This document shows, piece after piece, positions 26,590-51,970 of a DNA stretch of 64,000 nt (the first letter of the stretch is position 1; every line of letters starts with the position of its first letter). Position numbers and translations under genes: made by a program. The notes beneath the pieces are model-generated. The model had not been told where the DNA came from, did not search any database, and was given only the letters and a program-made list of their open reading frames with translations. The stretch spans positions 2,048,001 through 2,112,000 of the forward strand of contig CBDCYI010000005.1 in the NCBI GenBank assembly GCA_965224085.1, in the 5' to 3' direction. This DNA is from Candidatus Marinacidobacterales bacterium. GTDB lineage: Bacteria; Acidobacteriota; Vicinamibacteria; Marinacidobacterales; SMYC01.

Positions 26590-28320
26590 TCAGAATCCGT
26601 TGGCATGACCGAGGCGTCGCGGATCGGTCACCCCATGAAGTTTGCCGGCATCATCGCGCCAGACAAGTTGGATCGAGCCGGTATGCCAGTTGTACGGTCC
26701 AAGCTCCTCGATCTGGATCCCGCGCGCCGAAAGCTCCTTGCGCAGGGCATCGGGAATGCGGGACTCGATGCGAAGATACCCGACGTTGCCAAAGTCTCGG
26801 TCCACTCCCCTGTCACGGTACGCCCAGAAGCGCGGCGCGTCGATGGCCTCTTTCGGCGGCATACCGAAGTCGAGGATGTTGATCAGAACCTCGGTAACCG
26901 GCTGCGACGGCAATCCCGGTGAGCCGATCGCCAGCCAGGGCTTGCCGTCCTTCGCGATCATCGTCGCGGTCACGTGCGTCGAAAAACGTCGGCCGGGTCC
27001 GCTCGTGCGCTGCCATCTTCCGCTGCCGGTAGATCTCACGCCGTCGACGAACACACCCGGCATACCACCATGCCCGGTATGAAGATAAGTAATCCAGTTG
27101 CCCTCGGCGTCGACGATGACGTTGTGATTGCTGTCGTCGCCGTAGGGGTCGACCTTACTCCAGGGTCCGGCTGGTCGCAGCGAAGCATAATCATCGGTAG
27201 CTCTCGCCGGCGCGAGGTCCGCTTTCGGCATGCTGGTCCGCACGAACTCGGCTCCCATCTTGCCGTACTCCTTCGAAAGCCATAGCGCCGACGGGATGTG
27301 GAAGCTGCGCGGATCCCCCATGGCATAGCGAATCTCGTTCTCCACCCGGCCGAGCGCGCGCACCATGATCTCCAGCGTTTCTGCCGACTCCGTGTAATGT
27401 CCCGCTTTCTTCAGGTCAAAGTTCTCCAGGATGTTCAGGTTGTAGCCAAGATTCAGACCCCCGGCCACCGGAGGCGGCTCACTGATGATCTCGTGGCCCC
27501 GGTACGTAAAACGCACCGGCTCCTGCCAGAGCACCTCGTAAGCGCTCAGATCTTCCAGGCTCACGCGCCCGCCACGCTTGTTCGCTTCCTTCACGAACTT
27601 CTGGGCCCACGCTCCCTTGTAGAGGTAATCCGAACCCTCCGAGGCTACCTTGCGGAGAGTTTCTGCGAGCGCCGGCATCTTCCAGCGGTGCCCCACCGGC
27701 ACCAGGTGCCCTTCGGGCATGTAGAACTCCCGGGCCTCTTTGTTCTCCTTGATCAAATCCCTGTTTGACCAATTGGAATAGTTGTTGCCATACATGAAGG
27801 AGGTGACGACGAACCCTTCCTCGGCGGTGGCGATGGCAGGCTCGACATAACTGGCCCACTCCTGCGTGCCGAAGCGCTTCCACAGTTGCTCCAGCGCGAG
27901 CACCTTGCCCGCAATCGAAACCTTCATCGGGTCGCCGTGCTCGCCGCGCTCGGCGAGAGGCTTTGCGCCATAAGCATTGAAGGCGTAATACTTCCCGGTT
28001 GCCGCCTCATAGTAGAGCCCGGTCATCGCGCCAAAAAGAGAGACTTGATGGTAGTCCACGACGTTTTGGAGGAACGTCGCGGTGATGGCCGCATCCACGG
28101 CATTACCACCTTCACGGAGGACCTCGAGCGCCGTCTCCGTGACGATGTGGAGTTGCGTGCTCACCATCACCTTGTCGCCTATCGCTTCGGGTTTAGGGCC
28201 CTGATTGAGCAGCGGATCTCTGGGATCGGTGGGTCCCGGCTCAATCTGGCCCATCGCTGCCGGCACCATGCCCGTGAAGATGAGAGTCAAGACTAGGGCC
28301 GGTAATGTGACCGAACGCAT
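26590..28320 (-). CDS. Gamma-glutamyltransferase-like Ntn hydrolase (GGT-like 2)
   Basis: Paralog of 18329-20068 with the same GGT motifs; RBS GGAGG before ATG 28320. Confidence 0.88.
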   Translation of the reverse strand: MRSVTLPALVLTLIFTGMVPAAMGQIEPGPTDPRDPLLNQGPKPEAIGDKVMVSTQLHIVTETALEVLREGGNAVDAAITATFLQNVVDYHQVSLFGAMTGLYYEAATGKYYAFNAYGAKPLAERGEHGDPMKVSIAGKVLALEQLWKRFGTQEWASYVEPAIATAEEGFVVTSFMYGNNYSNWSNRDLIKENKEAREFYMPEGHLVPVGHRWKMPALAETLRKVASEGSDYLYKGAWAQKFVKEANKRGGRVSLEDLSAYEVLWQEPVRFTYRGHEIISEPPPVAGGLNLGYNLNILENFDLKKAGHYTESAETLEIMVRALGRVENEIRYAMGDPRSFHIPSALWLSKEYGKMGAEFVRTSMPKADLAPARATDDYASLRPAGPWSKVDPYGDDSNHNVIVDAEGNWITYLHTGHGGMPGVFVDGVRSTGSGRWQRTSGPGRRFSTHVTATMIAKDGKPWLAIGSPGLPSQPVTEVLINILDFGMPPKEAIDAPRFWAYRDRGVDRDFGNVGYLRIESRIPDALRKELSARGIQIEELGPYNWHTGSIQLVWRDDAGKLHGVTDPRRLGHANGF

Positions 28321-28457
28321 AGCTACCTCCTCTCGGGGAATGCTTTGCTCCCGAGGCTCTTGGAAAAGTTTTTCCAGAATGAAGATCGATCTCAAACGAG
28401 CGCCCTTAGAAAAATTTCTGTCGGGCTTTCTCCTGGTGGTTAGGATGTCTCATTGGA

Positions 28458-28549: not shown

Positions 28550-31390
28550 CTAAAAACGGAGGCGCACCCCAATTTGCAGGGTGCGCGGCAGCTCGATGAC
28601 GGCCGGTTTCCCAAAATTGGAGAGGTCGAATCTCAAGGTCTGGACAGCCGTGACGGTGCTTACATTGAGCACGTTGAAGACGTCGGCCGTAAGATCCAAG
28701 TTCAAACGGCTGCCAAGTACAATCGCCTTTTCGGCACGGAACGATAGCAGGTGCAGAAAGTCTTGTCGGTTCGTTCCTCTCGGCTGACCGGCGAACTCGA
28801 TGAAGCTCTCTACCACGATGGCCGGGTTATCCTCCGCGAACACACGAATCGTGGGGGAGCCCAGGACGTCCGATGGGAAACCCGAGTCGGGCTTGATGGG
28901 GAAGCCGGAGATCCCCTGGTAGAACGCGCTCACCATGATTTGGTAAGGAGCCTGGTAGCTGCCGACGAGCTTGATCTGGACGGGAGCGTCCAAGTCGAGC
29001 GGACCGTCAATATTGATCAAGGTGTTCGGGTTGTCGTAGATTTGGTGTCCTCCCCAGGTGGCGCCGAAACTGTTGCCGATATTGCCGTCGGACCGGCCGA
29101 GGTTGAGCGAGCCAGTAAACTGCCAGCCGTCGCTCATCCGCTTGCGAGCGGCGATCTCGAGTCCTTTGTAGTTCCGCTCGAGAGGCACCGGATCGGTGGG
29201 GGTGGTGAGGTAGCGGATTCGTTGCGCCCCCACGAATTCCGGTTTCAGAGCGAAGGCCGTCATAGACTGGCCATCGATCGGGTTGATGACGTCGAGCGGA
29301 TCATAGGCAGAGAAGGGCCTGCCTATGTCTACGGTCTCCAGGATGTCCCGGTCGCGTTTGAAAATCCCGCTCACCGAGATGGCAAAGTTGTTTCCGATCT
29401 GCTGCTCGACTCCCACGTGGAGCGCGTCCGTGTAAGGTGCCTTCAAATTGGGATCGAACTGATCCAGATTTGTCGAGAAATTTCGGCGCAGGGTCCCCTG
29501 TTCGCCGTCCTGGAAGAAGAGATCGCCGTTAAGGTCATTCCAATCGTACTCCTGAAAGCTGGCCGCGTTCTGGAGGGCGAGCGACATGTGCTGATTCATG
29601 AGCGCCACGTAATATCGGCCAAAATTCAGCTTAAAGGAGGTCCGCTGGTCACCCTTGAGATCCCACACCAGCCCCAGCCGAGGGGCGACGGTGAACCAAT
29701 CGATCTGATTGCGTTGCTCGGCGAAGGTCACCTCGGGAAACCACCGACCCCCACCGCCCGTCTGCTCGGGGTGGAACCCCTCACTCCATTCGAACCGGGC
29801 CCCCAGATTCAGGGTGACCCGATCTTTCAGCGTCCATGCATCCTGGACGAACCCCGCCTGGCGGTTGACGTGCCGGCCCTGCAGCACCGGGAGCTGGTAA
29901 AGCCGAATCCGGTGTGCCGCTCCGTTCCTGTACCGGTGAAGCATTTCATCGGGGAGTTCGAATCGCCTCCAAAGCGGTGCAAATTCGTACTCGAAACCCG
30001 CCTGGAGATTGTGTTCGCCTCCCAAGAAGTCCCCGCTGAAGTAAGAGAAGTTGGCCTTGATATTTCTTTTCTCTCGGTTTTTGTAGTTGTTGACCGTGCG
30101 TGTCCATCCGCAGCAATCTAGCCCAGTGCCAATGTCCCGACCGCCCGATATCTCGGAATTGACAAAACCGCCCCCGCTCTGCTGCAAGGTCTGGACAAAC
30201 TTTATGTCCATATAGGTGTTTTCATTCAGCACCTGTGTCAGGGACACAAAAATGATCTTCTGATACCGGTCAGCGTCACGCCACGTCTCGGGCGAATCGT
30301 TGGTTCGAAAGCTGGCGCCGGTCGGAAACTCCGTACGGTCGCGCTGGGTGTAGGAGCCCATGAGGCGCGTATTCTCCGTTAGCTGCGTGGTGACCTTGAC
30401 GAAGCCTTGAGTGTCGGAAACGTCTATATCTCTGGCTGTGAAGTCCGGACGCGTGAAGTCGATGTCAAACCTGCGGATATTCCCGAAATACCAGACCTTA
30501 TCCTGCAGGATCGGACCGCCCAGGGTGAAGCCGTAATTCACGTTCTTGTTGATCGTCGTTCCCTGTTCGAGTCCCTGGTCGATGAGCTCGTCGGTGAGGT
30601 TGTCCCCTTGTAGCCCATCATTCTGTAAGAAAACGTTGACATTACCTTCGTGTTGGTTTCCACCCGACTTGGTCACGAAGTTGAACACCGCGCCGCTCGC
30701 CTGACCGAACTCGGCAGAAATGCCTCCGCTAGTGATCTGAACCTCGTCGAGAATGTCGTATGGGAGGTCGGTGAACGTGTAGCCCACCGTGTTATCGTTA
30801 ATGTTTGCGCCGTCGACGTACGAGACGTTGTCTCGAACCGAACCTCCGTGCACGGTTTGCGCCGGAGCAAAGGCGTATTGGCTATCGATGACACCCGGAG
30901 CGGTGACAAGGAGCTCGTCAAAGCGGTTTGCCGAGGGGAGATTCTCCACAATGGCACTGTCGACGATGCGCTGCGTCTTGGTGTTCCTCACATCGATGAT
31001 TGGCGATTCGCCAGTTACCGTGACGGTCTCCTGAACGGCACTAATGTTCAAGGTAACATCAATCGCTAGCGATGCTCCTGCCTCCAGAACGATCTCCTCG
31101 TGGGAAGTCGTTTGGAATCCTGGCAGCTCGATTTTTACCCTATAGACGCCAGGGGGAAGACTTGGAACACGATAAGTCCCTTCATTGCCGGTGACTCGGA
31201 CCTCCGTGTCCTTGATGAGCTGCGGACTGGATACGGTTACCGTCGCACCGGGGATACGGCTACCGCTCGCGTCGACGACCCTGCCGTAGAGGGTTCCGGT
31301 GAGTTCCTGCGCAAGGACACTACCTGCTCCCATCAGCAATAGGATGGACAGGACAAAACTAACCGAATTCATCACGAATCTATTGGACAT
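28550..31390 (-). CDS. TonB-dependent receptor (TBDR3)
   Basis: Full-length paralog of TBDR1, ending LQIGVRLRF; RBS AAGGAGA before ATG 31390. Confidence 0.92.
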   Translation of the reverse strand: MSNRFVMNSVSFVLSILLLMGAGSVLAQELTGTLYGRVVDASGSRIPGATVTVSSPQLIKDTEVRVTGNEGTYRVPSLPPGVYRVKIELPGFQTTSHEEIVLEAGASLAIDVTLNISAVQETVTVTGESPIIDVRNTKTQRIVDSAIVENLPSANRFDELLVTAPGVIDSQYAFAPAQTVHGGSVRDNVSYVDGANINDNTVGYTFTDLPYDILDEVQITSGGISAEFGQASGAVFNFVTKSGGNQHEGNVNVFLQNDGLQGDNLTDELIDQGLEQGTTINKNVNYGFTLGGPILQDKVWYFGNIRRFDIDFTRPDFTARDIDVSDTQGFVKVTTQLTENTRLMGSYTQRDRTEFPTGASFRTNDSPETWRDADRYQKIIFVSLTQVLNENTYMDIKFVQTLQQSGGGFVNSEISGGRDIGTGLDCCGWTRTVNNYKNREKRNIKANFSYFSGDFLGGEHNLQAGFEYEFAPLWRRFELPDEMLHRYRNGAAHRIRLYQLPVLQGRHVNRQAGFVQDAWTLKDRVTLNLGARFEWSEGFHPEQTGGGGRWFPEVTFAEQRNQIDWFTVAPRLGLVWDLKGDQRTSFKLNFGRYYVALMNQHMSLALQNAASFQEYDWNDLNGDLFFQDGEQGTLRRNFSTNLDQFDPNLKAPYTDALHVGVEQQIGNNFAISVSGIFKRDRDILETVDIGRPFSAYDPLDVINPIDGQSMTAFALKPEFVGAQRIRYLTTPTDPVPLERNYKGLEIAARKRMSDGWQFTGSLNLGRSDGNIGNSFGATWGGHQIYDNPNTLINIDGPLDLDAPVQIKLVGSYQAPYQIMVSAFYQGISGFPIKPDSGFPSDVLGSPTIRVFAEDNPAIVVESFIEFAGQPRGTNRQDFLHLLSFRAEKAIVLGSRLNLDLTADVFNVLNVSTVTAVQTLRFDLSNFGKPAVIELPRTLQIGVRLRF

Positions 31391-31521
31391 TTTCTTCTCC
31401 TTGAAACTGACGGTAACAAACTGGATGCCCTCTCCGCGGTCGAAAGCGCGGCACCCGGATAGGCTCATCGCGCCAAACTGCAACTAGACTAAGACTAGAA
31501 CTAGAATCACGACATACGCTC

Positions 31522-31835: not shown

Positions 31836-33299
31836 GTGAGCAAGAAGAGGCGGGGAAGGAAGCGCTCGGCGTCAGAGCCGAGGGGCTTCCTGCGGCGAAC
31901 GAGGCAAGCCTTACTGGTGTTGGGCATCCTAGCGATTCTTCTCGCTATAGCCAGCCGGCTACTTCGAGAGGGGCCATCGGTTCCGCATCCGGATACGTCG
32001 ATGATGGAGCCCCAGGTAGCAGCGAAGATTCATAAGTATCGCCGGGCCGTCATTCGTGACGCGGGATCTCCGGAGGACTGGGGGCGGCTGGGTATGGTAT
32101 TCCAGGCCCACGGGCTGGAGGTCGAAGCGACGGAATGCTACACGCGTGCCTCCAAGCTCGATACCGTAGAGTTCCGCTGGACCTACTTACTGGCCAACAC
32201 ACTTGCGGACAGGAACACAGAGCAGGCGCTCACCTTTGCTGAGCGCGCCTCCCAGCTCAGACCGAGCTATGCGCCGGCTCATGTCCTCGTGGCTCAGCTC
32301 CTGGAACGACACAACCGGCCGGAAAGTGCTCTGGAGCGTTACAAAAAGGCGGTTGCGTCAGATCCGCGCTGTACCGTGGCCGTGTTCGGTCTCGGGCGCC
32401 TTTACCTGGCGAATCGAGACCTGGAGGTCAGTCTAGAGCATCTCCGGCGTGCTGCAGAATTACAGTCAGACGCCACGCCTATCAACGCCTTCCTGGCTAG
32501 GGTCTACCGACGACTCGATGATCCGGCATCAGCCGAGCGGGAGGCTGAACTGGCTCGGCAGCCTAGCAAGGAGATTGTTTTAAACGACCCGCTCATGGCT
32601 CAGGTCATGGATGAGGCGGTGTCTTCTGCGGCCTATCACCGCCGAGCGATGCGTGCCGATGCGGCTGGAGATTTGAAAAACGCCGAGGCACTCTACCGGT
32701 CGCTCCTGGAGATACGGCCTCTGGATGTTGTGATTCACTATCAGCTAGGAAATATGCTGGCTCGCCAAGGAAAGTTCCCCCAGGCCAGGGATCAATACCG
32801 CAAGGCTTTGGACGTAGACCTGCGCCACGCCCCAACACTGGTCGCTTTCGGCAACATGTTGAACTATCAGGGAGAGTTCGATGAAGCGGTACGACAGTAT
32901 CGAAATGCGCTGGACGTTCGTCCCGAAGACACGGTCACTCGCAACAACCTGGCCAACGTTCTCGCAAAGAAGGGGGAGCTCGAACAGGCGAGAGCGCATT
33001 ACCAGAAGTCTCTGGAGTACGAGCCGGGCAACTTCGACGCTCATCATAACCTGGGGCAAGTCTTGGCTCGGCAGGGCAAAATCGAGCAGGCAATAGCCCA
33101 TTACCGATCGGCCCTGCGGTCGAAGCACAACGTCGGCCTGGTTCATTCTCACCTTGCCCTTGCTCTCGTCCAGGCCGGAGACTATCGATCCGCTTGGAAG
33201 CACGCAGAACTTGCCCAAAGTCTTGGCGAGACGTTTCCGGCGGACATTCTCGAGGCACTGGAGCAGCGCATGCAGGACCCCACCTCGAAGCGACCCTAA
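31836..33299 (+). CDS. Membrane-anchored tetratricopeptide repeat protein
   Basis: Basic N-terminus, TM segment, many TPRs (AH.NLG.VLA.QG...AI.HY..AL). Confidence 0.85.
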   Translation: MSKKRRGRKRSASEPRGFLRRTRQALLVLGILAILLAIASRLLREGPSVPHPDTSMMEPQVAAKIHKYRRAVIRDAGSPEDWGRLGMVFQAHGLEVEATECYTRASKLDTVEFRWTYLLANTLADRNTEQALTFAERASQLRPSYAPAHVLVAQLLERHNRPESALERYKKAVASDPRCTVAVFGLGRLYLANRDLEVSLEHLRRAAELQSDATPINAFLARVYRRLDDPASAEREAELARQPSKEIVLNDPLMAQVMDEAVSSAAYHRRAMRADAAGDLKNAEALYRSLLEIRPLDVVIHYQLGNMLARQGKFPQARDQYRKALDVDLRHAPTLVAFGNMLNYQGEFDEAVRQYRNALDVRPEDTVTRNNLANVLAKKGELEQARAHYQKSLEYEPGNFDAHHNLGQVLARQGKIEQAIAHYRSALRSKHNVGLVHSHLALALVQAGDYRSAWKHAELAQSLGETFPADILEALEQRMQDPTSKRP

Positions 33300-33358: not shown

Positions 33359-36300
33359 TTATCTAGGCTGCTTGAGCCCGAGGGCTTCTCCCAACCCACC
33401 TAGCTCCGGATCGTCCGGCCACCGCTCGAGCCCCTCCTCGAGAAAGCGAAGTGCTTCGCTTCGCTCGCCAACTTGAACGTGAGCACGGATGAGTCTCACG
33501 CAGATTGCGGGCGAAGGAGCAAGGTCGAACGCCTTTCGAAGGGGTTGTAGGGCTTGTCGGCTTTGCCCGGTTTGATTGAGAATGGTGCTCAAGTTGAGGT
33601 GGTCTCTCGGAGACTCGGGTTGGTGGGAGATCGCCGCCTCATAGGAGGAGATGGCCTTCGACAAATTACCCAGCACCGCCATGACGTAGCCGAGATTGCT
33701 GTGTGCATCGGCAAATTGTGGATTCAACGCGATGGCTTTCTCGAACGCCTCTGCCGCTTCTTTCCATCTTTGCTGGTTGAGCATCACCGTGCCGAGGTTG
33801 TGATGGACCTTGGCAGAATCCGGACTCCGTTCCGTGGCCCTTTGGTAGAACGTCTCTGCGTGACTCCAGTAGCCCCGCTCTGCGAACTCATTGCCCAGTG
33901 AAAAAAAATTGCGGAAGAACTCGATTCCCAAATTGATGCCATCGAACGGCAGGCCGACCCGCTCCCGCTCTTCGGCGGTCCGAGGGATTCGCTCCGAGTC
34001 GGCGGCAACGTCATCAGCCCCGACGGCGCCCCGGTAAACCTTGACAATCCTTCCTTGCTCGTCGATGAGGAAGCTCGTTGGAATGGCCAGGTCGGAAATT
34101 CGGTCATAGAGAGTGGGAGTCAGGACATTGTAGACTCCAACCATCTCTTCACTAGCCAGGAGCAACGGGAAGTCGAGCCGGAGCTCCTCCTTGAACGCCC
34201 GCACCGGTTCCTCAGCCGGCGGCTCGTCCACCGAGACGGCTAGAAGAGTGACGCCCGACGCTTCCAGATCCGATCTTTTATTCTTGAAGTCCAAAAGCTC
34301 ACCGCGGCAAGGGGCGCACCAGCTCGCCCAGAAGTTCAGCAGCACCTTTTGTCCTTTGAGACTCGCTAACCGGTGGCTCTTGCCGTCCAAGTCGCTCAAG
34401 GTGAAATCAGGAGCGGGCAGAGGATCCAGAAGCCACGTACCCCTGGGTGGGCTGGGCATGTCTTTATTGACCTTCCGAACCGGAGTCGCGTGGGGCGGCT
34501 GGAAAGGCTCGATCTCGAGGTCCTCCTCGCCTTCGACCACACGGATGAGGTGATTCGCCGGGGTCGACCCGAGTGTCTGTACCACTCCACTCGGCCAGTG
34601 GATGACGACTCTTTCTATCTCCCCCAAACCCTCGAGACCGAAATGAAGCCTGCGGCTACTTTGAGATAGGTAACCGCTTGCCGCACGTACCGTTTTCTGA
34701 CGAACGCCCCGACTGGTGTGGACCTCGACGCGGGCACCTATCGCGTCAGGATTACTCGAGCGACCTTCCAAAAGAAAACGGACCGCAGCCCGTCCGTTGG
34801 CCAGGTCGTTGCGCAGGAGCCGGAGCTGAGGTGCGTTTCGGCTCTTGAGTGCGATGTCAATGTCCCCATCCAGGTCATAGTCGAAACCGACGAAGGCCCG
34901 TCCGTCCTCGGGAAAGTCGAGCCCGCTGATACCCGAGGCATCGATGAAGGTGCCGTCGCCATTGTTGAGGTAGAAGCAGTTGCGCTCGTCGCCGCTCCAG
35001 CTTCCGTCGCCCCGAATGAGGCGATTGATAGCGTTCCAGCCTTGCTCATAAAGCTCCACCGCTTTGTTTTCAGTGGGCGAGCGCGACACGACTTGCCGCC
35101 AGAAGAAGCTTCAAAGATCTTTCGTCGAGGTATTAGTAATGAAGCCATTGACGGAGTAGAGGTCTTCGTCCCCGTCGTTGTCGCAATCGAGAAAGTCACT
35201 ACTCCAGGCCCATCGCCCAAACTCGACCCCGGCCTGCTTGCCGACATCTTCGAACCCGCCATCTCCCCGGTTTCGAAACAAGCTACTTCCCTTGGCGTGA
35301 CGCACGTAGCTGGCGCGTGCGTTGTCAGTTTGATAACCGGGCTGTCCGGTCAGGCGTAGACCGGCAGAAGACCACATGTTGCCCACATAGAGATCGTCTT
35401 TGCCATCCAGGTCGTAATCCACCCAGGCGACGCTCATACCCGCGCCGATGTCCGATACACCCGCGTCTCGGGTAACCTCGAGGAATCTGCCTTTCCCGAA
35501 GTTCTGATACAGATTGTTCCTGCCGAAGTCGTTCGCCACGTAGAGGTCGAGCCATCCATCATTGTTGAAGTCGCCCCAAGACGAGGAGAAGCTGAAGCGG
35601 TCGTTTCCCCGGTCAAAGCCCGCACTCTTGGTGACGTCTTCGAAGGTTCCATCGCCACGATTCCGAAAAAGTATGTTTGGAGGCCCATTGGTGGCATCGT
35701 GATAGGGGTAAGGCAGCGCCAGGGTAGTATCTTCTCCGGGAGCATCGAAGTATCGGTAGCAGGTGACGTAGAGGTCCAAATCGCCGTCGTTGTCGAAGTC
35801 GGCCAATGACGCCGAGCTCAAAGTGGCGTCGGCGCCGTCTTTCCTTTCAAACGAAGCTCGAGAGAGCTCGAATCTCCCGTGCCCGTCGTTTAGGAGAAGC
35901 ACGACGGTCCAGTTATGGATGACGACGAACAGGTCTTGATCACCGTCATTGTCGGCGTCGCCGAAGAGTCCCAAGGAGGTGCGCTCGAGAAGATCGACTC
36001 GGGATTCCCGGCTGATATCCTCGAACGTCCCGTCACCCCGGTTCCGATAGAGCCGGTTCGGGAGTCCCTGCGGCTGAGCCACGTAAAGGTCCTCGAGTCC
36101 GTCGCCATCCACGTCTCCAACCGCAAGTCCGCTATGTCCGTACACATCGATGCCACCGGCGGCATCTACCCCGGTGCGGAAGTGATCGACCCCCATCCTC
36201 ATCTGCTCCCAGTAGGAGGGTGCGTCGGCCCAGGCGACAGTGCTCACGTCGGTAAAGAAGGGCTTGGCGGTTCGCCCTCCGGTGGAGGGCTCGACCTCGA

Positions 36301-36946
36301 GGCGCTTCATTTTCCAACCGTCATCCGAAAAGACCCAGTCCACTCGCCACCAACCTCGACGGGCAATGAAGTCGTTCGCCGCTCCTCGTCCCGAGACGTC
36401 ATACAAGATCCGAGTCCGCGCATGCGACGGCTCGGCAGCGGCATCCACGTGGATACTGACGATCTTGAACTCGAGTAAAGAAAAGGAATGAAACTCCTCG
36501 ATCCAAGCCAGAAGAGCGGAGGGCGCCTGGGCCGCCATTGCGGAGAGCTTTTCAGGATAGCGATACCGGAAGAGCTCAACACTCGGAGGTGCGGCCACCG
36601 CCTGGCTTGAGACCGGCTCTAGAGAAGGTGCCTGAAACCCCCTATGGACAAGCGAGGCGATCTCTCCCGGTCGACGTCCTTCTATTGCCTCTTCCAACGC
36701 ACGGAGCCTTTCTTCGATCGCCTCGGCAACGACCTCGGTCCTAAAACGATCCTGTGCAGGATCGACGGCAACGAACAGGGACTCGACCGCCGAGCGTTTG
36801 GAGGGGTAGCCTCGCACCGGGAAGACCTGTTTGCTCTGCTCAGATTGCTCGGAGGCTTCTCCTGCTCGTGAGGCGGGAGTAAAGGATATGAACAAGCAGG
36901 CCAGCACCACGAGACGAGAAAACGACTCACTCATGATGGAATACAC
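33359..36946 (-). CDS. FG-GAP repeat / ASPIC-UnbV / TlpA-like redoxin / TPR protein with in-frame TGA at codon 612 (candidate selenoprotein)
   Basis: ORFs 35111-36946 and 33359-35089 are in frame and joined by TGA AGC TTC TTC TGG CGG CAA GTC (KDL*SFFWRQVVSRSP). Contains DxDxDG repeats, GYLSQSS..LHFGL, NFWASWCAPC and C-terminal TPRs. Confidence 0.8.
35083..35099 (-). promoter_or_regulatory. Putative SECIS-like hairpin
   Basis: Stem GCGGCA/UGUCGC with loop AGUCG, starting 11 nt after the UGA, the same offset as the FDH SECIS. Confidence 0.5.
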
Positions 36947-37614: not shown

Positions 37615-39825
37615 CTAAGGAAGTAGAGTGAAACGCGTCCCGCCCTCGACGATCGCGATGCGTCGACCCAAAGGCAGATCGTGGAACGTCTGGGTGAGCC
37701 CGGAGGTCGGCCACCAGACTTCGAGACGATCGATCTTTTTCGCTCTTCCCAGGCCGACCATCTGCTCGAGTGGATTGGCTCCAAACGTTCCCCCGCTGAT
37801 CACGTGCTTGTAGATGGTGCGGCGGCGGTCCCCTTCGTCGATATCGAAGCGCAGCCGGGCTCCCTGGGCGGAGCGATTCGACTGCCTCCCGATGAGCTTC
37901 ACGCCGATCCATTGGTTGCCGAAGCCCGGGTTCTCGTAGACAACGTCATGGAAGCCGTCGCCCGGGAGCGCACCGCCCATCTGCTCGAAAACGTCCTGAT
38001 CGCCGTCATGGTCGAGATCCGCAAACGCGATCGCGTGCCCCTTCTGCAAATGAGCGAAACCGCCGGCGGTCGTGACATCCGCAAAAGACTCACCGGATCG
38101 GTTGCGGAACATGACGTTGGGCATGACGTCCTGGTAGTCCGGATAGCCCGTACCCAGGTAGAAGTCCAGGTATCCATCGTTGTCCAGGTCGCCGAAGTTG
38201 GAGCCCATGGGGGCGTTGGGACTCTTCAGATTCTGCTCGAGGGCAACGTCTTCGAAACCGCCCTGTCCGTCGCCGCGATACAGCCGCGCCATCTCGATGT
38301 CGAGGGGCTGCCCGAGGTAAGCGGCGGCCAGGTGTCCGATTCTGGCGATGTAGGCGGATACGAACAAGTCAAGAGCCCCGTCGTTGTCGAAGTCCCAGAA
38401 CCAGGCGGGGAAACTGTCCACCGGGCCATCCACGCCGAGTTCCGTCGCCACGTCCGTGAAGGTTCCGTCGCCGTTGTTGTGGTAGAGACGGTTCGCGCCT
38501 TTCAGATTCGAGACATACAGGTCGGTAAAGGTGTCGGCGTCGTAGTCGCCCCAGATGACCGCCTTGGCAAACCGCAAATTCTCCACATCCGCTTCTCGCG
38601 CCACGTCGGTGAACGTCCCGTCCCCGTCGTTGCGAAGGAGCTGACAAGGGGCTGTCACGCCGTCGTACGTCTCGTTTCCGATATACAGATCCAGGTCGCC
38701 ATCGTTGTCGTAGTCGGCCCACGAGGCGGTCTGGGTAGGAAAGTGCTCCTCTCCCAGCCCGGAGTCGAACGTGACGTCGGTAAAGGTTCCGTCGCCGTTG
38801 TTGCGCAGGAGGGAGTTAGGGTGGAGCCCACTCCGGGACAGCCAGGCTCCGCGCAGTACCAGAACGTCGACGTCGCCGTCGTTATCGTAGTCGGCCTGGA
38901 GCATGTTGAGTCCGCCGGTAATTCCGGTCAGCCCCGCCGGTTCCGTCCGGTCCTCGAACGACCAGCTCCCCCGGTTTCGGAACAAGCGGATCTGACCCGC
39001 CGGATCCCACGTGGAGACGAGCAGGTCCAGCCGGCCATCGGTGTCGAAATCGTCCGCAATGGCGCTCCCGGAAAGACTGAAGGTGTCCAGCCCGACGCGC
39101 CGAGCAATATTGGCGAACCGGGGAAACGGCTCGTCGGAGTCGAACGCTTCCGGCGGAATCAAGTAGGCCTCGGGCACGTCCCCGGGATGAGCACCCAGCG
39201 TCATGAAAGCGATATTCAGAAGCCAGCGCGCGCTCATGTGAATGAGGGTGTCTTCGCTGGAGTTTTGGAGCACCTCGGTGAAGCACTCCACCGCTCTGAG
39301 CGATCCCTCTCGCTCGATATGAATGGCGTTTCCTCGAATCGGAAGGATGCAGCTTTCGGGCGCATTACGGAGACAACAGTTCTGGGTCTCGCCCAATCGC
39401 GTGTAGGCGACACCCATGCGGTAGAACAGTCGGTTTCTCCAGCCTGCGGCCAGTTCGGTCTCCACTTCGCGAAGCAGGCGGTACGCACCCAAAAAGCTCT
39501 CGATTGCCTCTTGCTCGCGGCCCAGGTCGAGCTCGGCCTCCCCTAGTCGGTAGTAGACCTCCCACTTGATGATTGCGGGTATCGTCTCCGGCAGCGCCGC
39601 CAGCTCGGCTCGTAGCGCGCGCGCTTTCTTGTCACCGATGTAGGGATTGTCTTCCGGCGTGCGGGCAACGATATCGGACAGCAGGGCGAGCATCTTCTGG
39701 TGCCCGGGATCGTGGGGCTGGACTCCTGGGGAGCTTGCCGCGAGCAGGAATGGGCTTGCGATCAGTGCGAGCGTCGCAAGCGATCGGAGGATGATGGTGC
39801 GCGATGTATTCATCGCAGGTATCAC
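37615..39825 (-). CDS. CRTAC1 family FG-GAP/ASPIC-UnbV protein with Cys-rich N-terminal helical region
   Basis: Signal peptide, GETQNCC...ESCILP, DYDNDGDLD repeats, GGTFGANPL...GLG...V.WP. Confidence 0.88.
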   Translation of the reverse strand: MIPAMNTSRTIILRSLATLALIASPFLLAASSPGVQPHDPGHQKMLALLSDIVARTPEDNPYIGDKKARALRAELAALPETIPAIIKWEVYYRLGEAELDLGREQEAIESFLGAYRLLREVETELAAGWRNRLFYRMGVAYTRLGETQNCCLRNAPESCILPIRGNAIHIEREGSLRAVECFTEVLQNSSEDTLIHMSARWLLNIAFMTLGAHPGDVPEAYLIPPEAFDSDEPFPRFANIARRVGLDTFSLSGSAIADDFDTDGRLDLLVSTWDPAGQIRLFRNRGSWSFEDRTEPAGLTGITGGLNMLQADYDNDGDVDVLVLRGAWLSRSGLHPNSLLRNNGDGTFTDVTFDSGLGEEHFPTQTASWADYDNDGDLDLYIGNETYDGVTAPCQLLRNDGDGTFTDVAREADVENLRFAKAVIWGDYDADTFTDLYVSNLKGANRLYHNNGDGTFTDVATELGVDGPVDSFPAWFWDFDNDGALDLFVSAYIARIGHLAAAYLGQPLDIEMARLYRGDGQGGFEDVALEQNLKSPNAPMGSNFGDLDNDGYLDFYLGTGYPDYQDVMPNVMFRNRSGESFADVTTAGGFAHLQKGHAIAFADLDHDGDQDVFEQMGGALPGDGFHDVVYENPGFGNQWIGVKLIGRQSNRSAQGARLRFDIDEGDRRRTIYKHVISGGTFGANPLEQMVGLGRAKKIDRLEVWWPTSGLTQTFHDLPLGRRIAIVEGGTRFTLLP

Positions 39826-47550: not shown

Positions 47551-48168
47551 TCACTTCGAGATGTCTCGATACCACTTGGGATGGTGCGACGCCGCCCAAC
47601 CGGGCCGCACCCAGCCTTGAATCATGCCACGCAAAGCTCCGGGGACGGCAGCCGTCCCCATATAGATGTGGACGATGATTCCACCGATGGAAAGCACGGC
47701 GACCGCGGGATGCACAAGGATCGCGGCGAGCCGGAGGGTGCGCGCCGTCGTCTCGGGAAACCAGAGGACGACCCCGGTGGCGATGAGAAGGATCACGGCC
47801 AGGGACTGCACCCAAAAGAGCACCTTCTGCCCCGCGTTGAACCTCCCGGGCTCGGGTAGACCTTCTTCTTCGTGAACGGCATATTTGTGCGCGTTCGCGA
47901 GCCACACCTTGTCGTCGGCATCGAGCTTCATTTCCCGGGCCCAGTTTCTGAACATGAGCCCGAGCGCTACACCAAAGAGGACCCCGCCCCACGGATGCCA
48001 GCGCCGCACGGTCTCGCCGCCGCCGAGAACGCTCGAAAGCCAAAAAAGATGGGGCGACCAAAGAGCGAGACCCGACAACGCGGCATAAAGAAAGCTGAGC
48101 GCCGCCATCCAATGCGTCGCCCGTTCCGCGAAGGAGAAGCGCACCAGCTTTTGGCTCGCGTCGCTCAT
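47551..48168 (-). CDS. fdnI: Formate dehydrogenase gamma subunit (cytochrome b556)
   Basis: RF...ER..HW, GRFNAGQK, HIY, W...HHP.WY. Confidence 0.92.
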   Translation of the reverse strand: MSDASQKLVRFSFAERATHWMAALSFLYAALSGLALWSPHLFWLSSVLGGGETVRRWHPWGGVLFGVALGLMFRNWAREMKLDADDKVWLANAHKYAVHEEEGLPEPGRFNAGQKVLFWVQSLAVILLIATGVVLWFPETTARTLRLAAILVHPAVAVLSIGGIIVHIYMGTAAVPGALRGMIQGWVRPGWAASHHPKWYRDISK

Positions 48169-48956
48169 GGCGCTTTATCCTCATAGGTCTTCGGACCGAA
48201 GCGAACGTAGTGCAGAAAGGCCCCAAGCACGCCGCCGACCAACAACGCGTTGCCGAGCCACTTGAGCGGGCCTTTCCACAGGCGCACCGTCAAGGGCACG
48301 ACCGGATCGTTCGGGAGGCCATAGTCTTCGGGGTTCAAGGCATCTCCGAGCACGTAGATGACGTTGGTCCCGCCCACACCCGCGGGATTATAGACACCCG
48401 CTTTCTCGCTTCCACGCGCCCGCAGCTCCTCGGAGCGATCGTTCGCGATCTGAACCAGGTCACTGCGCTCGCCGAAGGTCAGACAATTCGTGGGGCAAGC
48501 TTTGATGCAGGCAGGCTCGAGCCCGACGGCCGTCCGATCGGAGCACAAGTTGCACTTGTACGCCTTGCGCGTCACCGGATTCAGCTTGGGTACGTCGAAA
48601 GGGCAGCCGGTGATGCAGTAGCCGCAGCCGATGCACTTCTCCTCGTCGATGTCGACCGTGCCGTTTTCGTGGCGGAATATAGCTCCCGGCGCGGGACAAG
48701 CGGTGAGACAACCGGCATCGACGCAATGCATGCATTGGAACTTCGCCATGAGCCAGGACAGGTTTCCGTCCTCGCGCTCGATCTCATTGAACTGGATCAA
48801 GTTCCAGAAATCGTGGCGCGTCGTGGGAAAGGTCTGATAAGAGCCGTCGAAGCTAGAGGCGGTGAGGCCTTGCTCGTTCCACTCTTGGCAGGCTGCTTCG
48901 CACGCCTTGCAACCGATGCACGTCGTGGTGTCGATCAACTTGGCGACAGTGACCAT
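48165..48956 (-). CDS. fdnH: Formate dehydrogenase beta (Fe-S) subunit
   Basis: CIGCKAC, CMHC...C...CP, CIGCGYC...CP, C.LC.DR...PAC...CP; C-terminal TM helix. Confidence 0.93.
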   Translation of the reverse strand: MVTVAKLIDTTTCIGCKACEAACQEWNEQGLTASSFDGSYQTFPTTRHDFWNLIQFNEIEREDGNLSWLMAKFQCMHCVDAGCLTACPAPGAIFRHENGTVDIDEEKCIGCGYCITGCPFDVPKLNPVTRKAYKCNLCSDRTAVGLEPACIKACPTNCLTFGERSDLVQIANDRSEELRARGSEKAGVYNPAGVGGTNVIYVLGDALNPEDYGLPNDPVVPLTVRLWKGPLKWLGNALLVGGVLGAFLHYVRFGPKTYEDKAP

Positions 48957-51900
48957 CAGACCTTCGCTTTCTCAAGGTTGACGAGAAACCCTTTGTATTC
49001 CGGCGTTCCCGAGTTGGGGTCCAATACGGACGGCGTCAGGTTATTGACGAGCGGACCTTTCGTCCGGCCGAGATAGCCCCAATGGATCGGAAGCCCCACT
49101 TGGTAAATCGTGCGCCCTCCTGCTTGGAGTGGACGGATGCGCTTCGTCACCATCGCCGGACCCTCGGCCGTACCGCGTGCCGACGTCACCCGAACCCGGT
49201 CTCCATTCCGTATGCCTTTTTCGTTCGCGAGCGGTTCGGGGATCTCGACAAAGAAGCTCGACTGCAAGAGCGAGTTGGTCTCGACGTGTTTCGTCCAATA
49301 ATGAAAATGCTCGGTCAAGCGATAAGTGAGCGCGACATAAGGGTAGTCCTCGGCGGTTCCGAGCGGATCGAGATCGCCTTCGAAGATCGTCGCCATCGGA
49401 TTGGTCCCCACCGCTTTATGCATGGCGTTATCGACAGGAGACTCCACCGGCTCGTAATGCTCGGGGAAAGGGCCTTCGGCGAAATCCGGAGCAAAGAGCT
49501 TTGCGACCCCCTCGGGAAGCATGATGAACGAGCCCAGTGCATCGGGCGGCGCGTCGGCTTTGAAATCGGGAACGTCGCCGACATAGCGATTCCCTTGCCA
49601 GCGAATGGCCGCGCGCGTTTCATCCCAAGGCATCCCGTTCGCATCCGCGGAGGCGCGGTTGTAGAGAACGCGCCGATTGGCGGGCCAGCTCCAGGACCAG
49701 TTCGCATGAAGGCCGAGCCCGGTCGGATCGTCTTGGCCGCGCCGTGCCATTTGGTTGCCGTCCTCGGTAAAAGAACCCGCATAGAGCCAGTTGCCGCAAC
49801 GGGTCGATCCGTCATCCCGAAGCGCACCGAAGCCCGGAACTTGCCGTCCGCTGGCGAGCTCTTGTCCGTTGACTTCCTTCGCAACTTCCTCGAGATCGGG
49901 AGAGACGGCATTGCCGTAGTCCCACGCGATGTCCATCAGCGGCTCGGGCGAAGCGCCCCCTTCTTGCTCGTAAAGCTCCCGTATCTTCAGGAAGAGGCGG
50001 GCTACGATCTCTTGGTCCGGCTTCGCGTCGCCCGGCGGCGGGAGCGCCGCGCGCTTCCACTGAAGCCACCGGGAGGAGTTGACGAAAGCGCCGTCCTTCT
50101 CGGCGAAACAGGCTGCCGGGAGCAAGAACACCTCGGTGTCGACCGCGGAAGCGTCCGGCGCCTCGCCGTAATATTCCTCTGCCAGCTTCTTCGCGTTCCA
50201 AAACGCCGCGGTCTCGGTCTCGAAGTTCTCGACGACGATCATCCACTTTAGTTTGCGGAGCGCTGCGAGCATCTTCGGCGAGTTGGGACCGTTGGCTACC
50301 GGATTCATCCCGAACGAGATCAACCCCTCGACCTCGCCCTTGTGCATGCGGTCGAACAAGAACCCCCAGCCGAAGTTGTCGTTCTCGCCGACTTTCGGAA
50401 GATGATCGTAGGCGAAATCGTTCGCGCGCGTCGCCTTGTCGCCGTAATAGGCTTTGAGGAGGCTCACGATAAATTTGGACGTGTTGCTCCAATAGTTGAG
50501 CGCTTTGGGGCGAAGCGCCCGCGGGGAATTGGCGTCGACATAGTCTTCGAGGGTCTGCCAGTCGGCGCGAGGCACTTTGACGTAGCCTGGGAGCATGTTC
50601 CACGCACCCATGTCAGTCGCGCCTTGGATGTTCGAATGGCCGCGCTGCGCGTTCACACCTCCGCCGGGCATCCCGATATTGCCGAGAAGAAGCTGCAGCA
50701 TCGCCGCCGCGTGGATGAGCTGCACCGAGTGGCTGTGCTGCGTCCAGCCGAGCGCATAGAGTATCGTCCCCGCGCGACCCGCGCGACCGGTGGAGCAAAC
50801 GACCTCCGCAACACGGTTGAACTCCTCCACCGTGCAACCGCAAATATCGGCGACGCGTTCCGCGGTGTAGCGGGCATAATGCTGCGTCAAGAGCTGAAAA
50901 ACAGAGCGCGGGTGGCCGAGAGAGGCGTCGACACGCGCATAGCCTGTGCTGTCGAGCTCATATTGCCAGCTCGTCTTGTCGTATTTCTTTGACGCACCAT
51001 CCCATCCCGTAAAGTAGCCGTTGTCGAAACCGAAGCCTTCCTTCACGAGAAAAGGTGCGTTCGTGTGCTCCTTGACATAGTCGCTGTGATAGAGGTCGTT
51101 ACTGAGCGCGTAGTGGATGAGCCCAGCGAGAAAAGCGATATCGCTGCCCGAGCGCAGCGGCACGTAGACATCAGAGACGGCCGCGGTGCGGGTGAACCGC
51201 GGATCGACACACACGATCTTCGCCTTCCGGCGCTTCTTCGCCTCCATGGCGAAGCGGAAACCCACCGGATGGTTCTCCGCGGGGTTTCCGCCCATGACGA
51301 GGACGACGTCGGTGTTGGCGACGTCGGTCCAGCCATTCGTCATCGCGCCCCGTCCGAAGGTGGCGGCCAAACTGGCCACCGTGGGGCCGTGTCAGAGCCG
51401 GGCCTGGTTCTCGTAGGTGACGATACCCAGGCCGAAGCGGAATTTTCCGAGAAGGTAATTGATCTCGTTCGTGTCGGTGCAGCCGCCGATGAGTGCCGTG
51501 TTCTCGAGGCGATTCACGGTGCGCCCGTCGCTGTCTTCGGCCTCGAAGCCCGCGTCACGGGTGTCTTTGATCCTGCGCGCTATCCGCTCGATGGCGTCGT
51601 CCCACGAAATGGGCGTCCACTCCGTGGCGCCGGGGGCGCGATAAAGGGTCTTCGTCAAACGGCGGTCATTGACGACGTATTGTTTTAGCGAGATGCCTTT
51701 GGAACAGAGCGTACCGCGGTTGATCGGGCTATCCGTGTCGCCTTCGATGTGGACGACGGTCGGCTTCACGTTCTTCGCGCGGTCGCCGAGCGTATGGATG
51801 ACAACACCGCATCCGACGGCGCAGTAAGGACAGACGCTCTGGGTCTGGGTGGTGCGGGCGATCTTCAGCTCTTTCGCGCGACGCGCCGCCTCGCTCAAGT

Positions 51901-51970
51901 CGAAGCCGAAAGCGGTGGTCGCGAGAGCGGTCGCGCTCGCTTGAAAGAATTGTCGCCGGGATAGATCCAC
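48956..51970 (-). CDS. fdnG: Formate dehydrogenase alpha subunit, selenocysteine-containing (UGA at 51392-51394)
   Basis: Tat signal SRRQFF, CPYCAVGC, NQARL-U-HGPTVASLAATFGRGAMTN; the two ORFs are in frame. Confidence 0.95.
51362..51380 (-). promoter_or_regulatory. SECIS element of fdnG
   Basis: GGUGGCCA-GUU-UGGCCGCC hairpin starting 11 nt after the UGA, as in enterobacterial fdh genes. Confidence 0.85.

Follow-up and report, generated by a model that had tools for sequence, protein, structure and literature searches.

A probable new selenoprotein family with an FG-GAP propeller and a fused thioredoxin-fold domain in the Acidobacteriota

The window analysed here is a stretch of 64,000 nucleotides from the genome of a Candidatus Marinacidobacterales bacterium (phylum Acidobacteriota; assembly GCA_965224085.1, contig CBDCYI010000005.1), and the element in question is a minus-strand gene at window positions 33359-36946 whose reading frame is crossed by an in-frame TGA at 35111-35113. 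Comparative sequence evidence indicates that this UGA is very probably decoded as selenocysteine (Sec) by the canonical bacterial mechanism. The gene and its relatives are best described as a new selenoprotein family using that mechanism, with novelty judged on the main table of the current catalogue and on published texts. The explanation as a whole, which we regard as probable, is that the gene encodes an exported selenoprotein of 1195 residues in which Sec612, inserted by SelB with the help of a selenocysteine insertion sequence (SECIS), is a redox centre recycled by a fused domain of the same chain.

The gene and its in-frame TGA

Two open reading frames (ORFs) of the minus strand, 35111-36946 (611 aa) and 33359-35089 (576 aa), lie in one frame and are parted by the TGA alone, in the context ...NGFITNTSTKDL-U-SFFWRQVVSRSP... 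This arrangement, claimed in an earlier note made from the letters of the window, was reproduced, and decoding of the TGA joins the two ORFs into a product of 1195 aa. An ATG four codons downstream of the GTG at 36944-36946 is available as an alternative start. The features of the gene are as follows:

33359..36946, minus strand: whole gene of the putative selenoprotein, running from a GTG start (36944-36946) through 1195 codons to the stop (33359-33361)
36863..36946, minus strand: signal-peptide-like N-terminus (hydrophobic core LVVLACLFISF, then ASRA-G; judged by eye)
34847..36253, minus strand: FG-GAP beta-propeller containing U612, approximately residues 232-700 (Pfam, model and Foldseek)
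35111..35113, minus strand: in-frame TGA, read as selenocysteine (U612) on the basis of the conserved column and the DNA contigs
35083..35099, minus strand: SECIS-like hairpin GCGGCA-AGUCG-UGUCGC (sequence, covariation and sense-codon control)
34976..34978, minus strand: Cys657 (motif ERN-C), candidate resolving cysteine, 45 residues after U612
34547..34744, minus strand: UnbV_ASPIC domain, residues 735-800 (Pfam, 70 bits, above the cut-off)
34019..34417, minus strand: ResA/TlpA-like thioredoxin-fold domain, residues 844-976 (Pfam AhpC-TSA and Redoxin, above their cut-offs)
34307-34321, minus strand: WCAPC, residues 876-880, inside the thioredoxin-fold domain
33401..33814, minus strand: C-terminal TPR repeats, residues 1045-1182 (Pfam)

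The N-terminus, read by eye, looks like a signal peptide, and an extracytoplasmic location is predicted from it. Pfam identified FG-GAP_3 in six stretches of the 1195-aa product (148.5 bits, above the cut-off), and the earlier statement that the FG-GAP repeats continue past the stop was borne out by a DYDLDGDID motif of FG-GAP type downstream of the TGA and by a propeller model that is unbroken through the site. Briefly, an AlphaFold model of residues 232-992 was built on an 86-row alignment and gave a mean predicted local distance difference test score (pLDDT) of 91.3 and a predicted template modelling score (pTM) of 0.91, with the chain continuous through the site. In this model U612 is the first residue of a helix (381-391 in model numbering), and Cys657 is the first residue of a strand (426-430) that follows the helix-loop-helix insert begun by U612. 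The top Foldseek match was murine CRTAC1 (9etn_A, E 1.2e-26, TMt 0.70), an entry that was also matched by sequence (E 3.1e-13), and the C-terminal domain matched ResA, TlpA, StoA and pneumococcal Etrx (TMt 0.65-0.88, the highest value to ResA). The WCAPC motif and the Cys located 45 residues after the UGA had both been named in the earlier note and were found, at residues 876-880 and as Cys657; the motif is all-Cys, and U612 lies about 264 residues upstream of it in another domain.

Two studies supplied DNA contigs over the TGA codon, X5 record 23 and X3 record 15 (the latter possibly the source of the window itself), both with 0 differing letters, and an RNA-library contig (X16 record 4, 35057-35286) spans it with no differing letters at 35111-35113. 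A sequencing or assembly error had been raised as a caveat, in the form of CTT TGA AGC as a compensated miscall of GAA; it was ruled out and is given no weight, because the DNA contigs of the two studies agree and 91 other loci carry the TGA, the RNA-library contig likewise contradicting a miscall. RNA-library cover of the gene is incomplete, and DNA contigs show skip joints between FG-GAP repeats. A second RNA-library contig, X16 record 6, is 334 nt long and has 4 differing letters; it lies at 35909-36193 with a word depth of 553, compared with 3-27 on the rest of the gene, and may derive from a conserved FG-GAP repeat of another organism.

Conservation of the codon was determined in two sets of genomes. 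In the first, of 41 related genomes, the joined protein served as query, and every one of the 22 best matches (32-100% identity) has a single TGA, accompanied in one case by a TAA. A phylum sample of 401 genomes was then queried with residues 560-700 (E <= 1e-15); 77 genomes matched, giving 96 match rows, 67 with one TGA and 29 with none, and the TGA forms came from 52 of the 401 genomes, distributed over 21 family-level groups. When all TGA rows fetched were combined with four more from named Bryobacterales metagenome-assembled genomes (MAGs), the codon at the DL-x-SFFWRQ column, which the earlier note had proposed to tabulate, was TGA at one aligned position in 91/91 loci from other genomes, at 32-100% identity and in three paralogous clades. 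Clade A comprises the orthologs of the window gene (motif DLUSFFWRQVV), which align over residues 1-1195, across the TGA; clade B comprises shorter paralogs without TPRs (DTUSxFWRHVV), one of them in the same genome; and clade C has the motif GDxUSxFWRAVARD. One locus (L047) is from an unpublished genome (G089), and the conclusions are unaffected by dropping it.

Gene callers split the gene at this codon, and public collections store TGA genes of the family as separate halves (P0125, 611 aa; P0152, 576 aa; P0189, 607 aa, in NCBI and ENA), with no full-length form above 59% identity among the near-length database matches. Such halves are what a true stop would leave, producing either two proteins, a half-propeller and a re-initiated C-terminal protein, or a pseudogene. 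We give that alternative almost no credence, since the break falls inside a single propeller domain modelled as a continuous fold, both halves are conserved and in frame in the 91 loci across the full range of identity, and sense-codon relatives are single chains of 1200-1320 aa. Re-initiation is further opposed by the start region of the downstream ORF: as had been claimed, no purine-rich ribosome binding site precedes the ORF-finder GTG at 35089 (read by eye), and this GTG falls within the hairpin described below.

SECIS-like hairpin and selenocysteine machinery

Under the proposed mechanism, SelB and Sec-tRNA(Sec) would decode the UGA guided by a SECIS hairpin in the coding region 11 nt downstream. 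A stem beginning at that distance had been reported in the earlier note and was located at 35083-35099, with the 5' arm GCGGCA at 35094-35099, the loop AGUCG at 35089-35093, the 3' arm UGUCGC at 35083-35088 and an 11-nt spacer at 35100-35110. The likeness in geometry to the formate dehydrogenase gene of the same window was also confirmed:

48956-51970, minus strand: fdnG, with its TGA at 51392-51394, an 11-nt spacer and then GGUGGCC-AGUUU-GGCCGCC

The fdnG gene belongs to an fdnGHI-type formate dehydrogenase operon at 47551-51970 (minus strand), in which fdnH lies at 48165-48956 and the cytochrome b subunit at 47551-48168. The element of the new gene resembles Sec decoding in FdnG and FdhF in its in-frame UGA, 11-nt spacer, G+C-rich stem of at least 6 bp and small apical loop, and it shares with the fdnG of the window a GU at loop positions 2-3.

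Covariation was scored in gapless alignments of 48 nt from the TGA onwards, one (A1) containing 54 TGA genes (52 distinct) and the other (A2) 15 sense-codon genes, using one fixed structure in which columns 14-21 pair with columns 25-32. In A1, 81.7% of the cells pair, each of the six core pairs is present in 41 to 50 of the 52 distinct rows, and the covariation score was reached by 0/500 shuffles, a test that is inflated by the relatedness of the sequences. Pair 18-28 occurs in five forms (CG 29, GU 11, GC 4, UA 3, AU 2). Column 18 falls on the synonymous third position of an Arg codon, and column 28 on the middle position of the Ser, Pro, Ala or Thr codon that follows Val-Val; through this pairing a silent Arg site thus follows an amino-acid substitution on the opposite arm. 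In the A2 genes, whose peptide is nearly the same (SFFWRQVVA/G), only 42.5% of the cells pair, pair 18-28 forms in 4/15 genes and there is no covariation. An uninterrupted stem of at least 6 bp in the common register was found in 73/89 TGA rows vs 1/17 non-TGA rows, and one of at least 5 bp in 83/89 vs 4/17; the 17 include a distant paralog (L029), and the register of clade C is shifted by one. The possibility that the hairpin is a mere by-product of coding for WRQVV was rejected as a full explanation, because sense-codon genes for the same peptide mostly lack it. Its covariation in TGA genes and its scarcity in sense-codon homologs, the outcome of a check proposed beforehand, argue on comparative grounds that the hairpin is selected and not incidental.

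The genome of the window (G000) contains SelA, SelB, SelD and tRNA-Sec, in line with the expectation that a host with a Sec-containing FdnG carries the full set. In the phylum sample SelA was detected in 299/401 genomes, including 49 of the 52 TGA-bearing ones; the other three (G121, G270 and G358) each have a tRNA-Sec above the Rfam cut-off and a SelB wing domain, so that restriction of the TGA to genomes with Sec machinery, another proposed check, held in 52/52. Among sense-only genomes, 5/25 lack SelA. The three genomes are 95-99% complete, and each has an intact TGA form of the gene.

These data also bear on read-through without SelB, in which a near-cognate tRNA or a suppressor would read the UGA and the hairpin would act as a general stimulator. 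In other systems read-through can be stimulated by a hairpin placed behind a stop codon, and the identity of the residue inserted here rests on comparative evidence. Against such read-through, the spacing and form of the hairpin equal those of the genome's own fdnG SECIS, Sec machinery accompanies the TGA in all 52 genomes with SelA missing from a fifth of the sense-only ones, and persistence of the TGA in three old clades of paralogs is typical of Sec genes; we therefore consider it highly improbable.

Several observations weigh against SelB-dependent decoding. Six of the 89 TGA rows have no clean stem of at least 5 bp in the common register and show irregular stems only, 3/15 sense forms show some hairpin at the site, and the W-R...V-A coding sequence itself favours part of the stem. 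The GU of the loop opens a conserved Val codon and is hence non-discriminating. A search of the whole window with Rfam at the gathering score gave 0 hits, its models not being expected to cover such an element. No tRNA was found in the window by ARAGORN; like the Rfam result, this has no bearing on the Sec claim. The RNA-library contig over the TGA proves neither transcription beyond doubt nor read-through. In G121, G270 and G358 the search for SelA returned only weak matches to pyridoxal phosphate (PLP) enzymes; this may reflect an assembly gap or another route to Sec-tRNA, and it does not threaten the Sec claim because all three have tRNA-Sec and SelB.

Residue at the site and proposed redox role

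Sense-codon relatives were compared at the Sec column. The best 120 full-length database homologs, nearly all single chains of 1122-1328 aa with the same architecture and assigned, where the source gives a name, to Terriglobales, Acidoferrum or Acidobacteria, have Asn in 104 cases, Ser in 6, Ala in 4, Glu in 3, Asp in 2 and Cys in 1. The 15 sense-codon loci have Asn in 5, Ala, Gly, Ser and Asp in 2 each, and Glu and Tyr in 1 each. The earlier note had asked whether Cys replaces the TGA elsewhere: Cys forms do exist, as supposed, but they are rare, and Asn dominates. Two of them, L174 and L175 (Bryobacterales MAG records, the same genes as L092 and L093), read DLCSFFWRQ/RVV without WCxxC and without the hairpin, and have an extra Cys in the second helix (GWNC) that might form a local disulfide.

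For a tree of 69 rows the site was masked and clade C was taken as the root by assumption. All 30 rows of clade B carry the TGA, and the sense-codon rows, nested in clade A, comprise a clade of 14 (Shimodaira-Hasegawa-like approximate likelihood ratio test, SH-aLRT, 91) and a single further row; the codon states can be explained by two changes. With this root the tree fits an ancestral Sec that was later lost within the subfamily.

The TGA co-occurs with other redox features of the chain, as counted in related sequences that are not independent events. A WCxxC lies 247-281 residues downstream of the site in 39/39 TGA loci (those with at least 320 residues after the site) vs 0/17 non-TGA loci. 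The CxxC is retained in 4/120 database sense forms, the rest having SxxC, LPDWE and similar sequences, with 7 unalignable there. In clade A, a Cys in or next to ERN-C is present in 18/20 TGA rows (at the motif in 11, five residues further on in 6 and one residue further on in 1), and four further TGA genes carry ERNLC or ERDVC; the corresponding position is Val in 15/15 sense-codon loci and Cys in 0/120 database forms. The differing positions of this Cys across subclades suggest repeated selection for a partner Cys. Joint loss of the TGA, the WCxxC and the Cys points to a Sec-centred redox site that would be served by the fused thioredoxin-like domain.

From this co-occurrence and from the position of the residue, the following chemistry is proposed. 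Sec612, which opens an alpha-helix inserted into the CRTAC1-like FG-GAP propeller, would provide the redox activity of a new catalytic site; in clade A its cycle would probably include a selenenylsulfide with Cys657. Its re-reduction would fall to the fused ResA/TlpA-like WCxPC domain, supplied with electrons by a membrane reductant of the CcdA/DsbD type; the genome has one DsbD_TM gene, unlinked to the selenoprotein gene. Plausible substrate classes would be a peroxide, a sulfoxide or a protein disulfide of the cell envelope. One lineage would have exchanged Sec, mostly for Asn, with loss of the partner Cys and the CxxC, the whole redox unit disappearing together. We give slightly better than an even chance to this chemistry in its parts: a redox centre at Sec612, its resolution by a local Cys in clade A and its recycling through the ResA/TlpA-like domain.

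Sec could also be inserted in a non-thiol role, as a metal or metalloid ligand, a structural residue or a device making synthesis dependent on selenium. FG-GAP propellers bind cations through DxDxDG loops, and homologs carry N, S, D, E, A or G at the Sec column instead of Cys, several of them oxygen-donor residues; the lack of a nearby Cys in clade B also favours such a role. The strict co-occurrence of TGA and WCxxC, together with the neighbouring Cys of clade A, is predicted by a redox relay and is unneeded for a ligand or a regulatory stop. In the model U612 is placed at the N-terminus of a helix, which is the typical place of a reactive Cys or Sec. On balance a non-thiol role is judged improbable.

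The redox role of Sec612 has its own difficulties. Cys stands at the Sec column in only 3/137 sense-codon homologs (P0003, L174 and L175), all three lack WCxxC, and the wider CRTAC1 family has Ile, Val or Leu there. The usual Sec/Cys signature of a catalytic residue is thus nearly absent, with Asn dominating, which is unusual yet no refutation of Sec. No Cys lies near the site in the 30 rows of clade B, so that a selenenylsulfide with a local Cys cannot be general. The root on clade C, from which the ancestral state is read, lacks an independent basis.

Known systems and genomic surroundings

Compared with FdnG and FdhF, the host protein of the proposed Sec is unrelated to molybdopterin enzymes, and in homologs the position of the Sec is occupied by Asn or other residues instead of Cys. 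The order of an FG-GAP propeller followed by UnbV_ASPIC, and the match to 9etn in both sequence and fold, are those of the CRTAC1/ASPIC-UnbV family, whose typical members differ in having I/V/L at the Sec column and no fused thioredoxin-fold domain. To our knowledge, no enzymatic function or established biochemical role has been assigned to this family. ResA, TlpA and Etrx are extracytoplasmic reductases of the Cys of a partner (apocytochrome c, ScoI/CoxB, surface MsrAB2). The redoxin domain of the window protein resembles them in its WCxPC (ResA subfamily model 86.9 bits, below the 170-bit cut-off), and unlike them it is fused in cis to its presumed client, the Sec-bearing propeller.

Predicted envelope redox selenoproteins with a thioredoxin-fold domain of the same superfamily are the UGC-containing TlpA, the ResA-like WAxxUGC (NF041054) and the Redoxin UxxC (PMC13188914, Table 1). 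In those proteins Sec lies within a CxxC-type motif, whereas in the window protein that motif is Cys-only and Sec is in another domain; NF041054 scored 75.5 bits against a 300-bit cut-off. NCBIfam returned 0 families for residues 1-830 and, for the whole protein, only redoxin and TPR models below threshold.

The catalogue consulted, a review of May 2026 (PMC13188914), gives 119 prokaryotic selenoprotein families and subfamilies with domain identifiers. Its Table 1 has no entry with an FG-GAP, UnbV_ASPIC or CRTAC1 domain, in agreement with the earlier remark that the family was not known as a selenoprotein, and the words FG-GAP, ASPIC, UnbV, CRTAC, VCBS and propeller have 0 occurrences in its text. 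FG-GAP, ASPIC, UnbV and CRTAC likewise have 0 occurrences in the texts of BSepDB (PMC13326102) and deep-Sep (PMC12013277). Literature on selenoproteins with FG-GAP, ASPIC, CRTAC1 or a beta-propeller yielded nothing relevant by title or abstract; supplementary family lists may name such a family otherwise. According to PMC12013277, discovery pipelines commonly require Cys homologs, and for this reason the family may have gone unreported. A survey of 2006 credited the phylum with few selenoproteins.

More broadly, the window gene may stand as the first member of a family of exported selenoenzymes that extends through the phylum, in which a Sec at a helix N-terminus on a CRTAC1-like propeller makes a new kind of redox active site, recycled in cis by the fused domain; Sec would be ancestral, with Asn instead of Cys taking its place on loss of the redox unit. 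This wider proposal is tentative, its chances falling somewhat short of even. If true, the bacterial selenoproteome would gain a large multidomain envelope family in a major phylum of soil and marine habitats, and the CRTAC1/ASPIC-UnbV fold would receive its first proposed catalytic function and a testable role. The family would be a clear case of Sec aligned with Asn instead of Cys; such families would be invisible to searches based on Sec/Cys homology, and the bacterial selenoproteome may therefore hold more of them. As the gene is stored as two ORFs in public collections, its annotation could be corrected in many genomes.

Outside the window, the genome contains a second selenoprotein gene of the family, the clade B locus L035 (G000:C11:1313418-1315472). 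Its frame of about 923 aa carries DTUSLFWRHVV and WCVPC and has no TPRs, and the locus possesses a hairpin of its own, GGCGCCAC-GUC-GUGGCGUC. FG-GAP/UnbV_ASPIC genes are numerous in this genome (51 matches to the joined protein), and stop-free paralogs lie directly upstream of the selenoprotein gene (736 aa, 37615-39825, minus strand) and at the window's left end (1-704). On its other side the gene is neighboured by a convergent TPR protein (31836-33299, plus strand), an outer-membrane barrel of the CarboxypepD_reg/TonB-dependent type (28550-31483, minus strand) and a gamma-glutamyltranspeptidase (26590-28395, minus strand).

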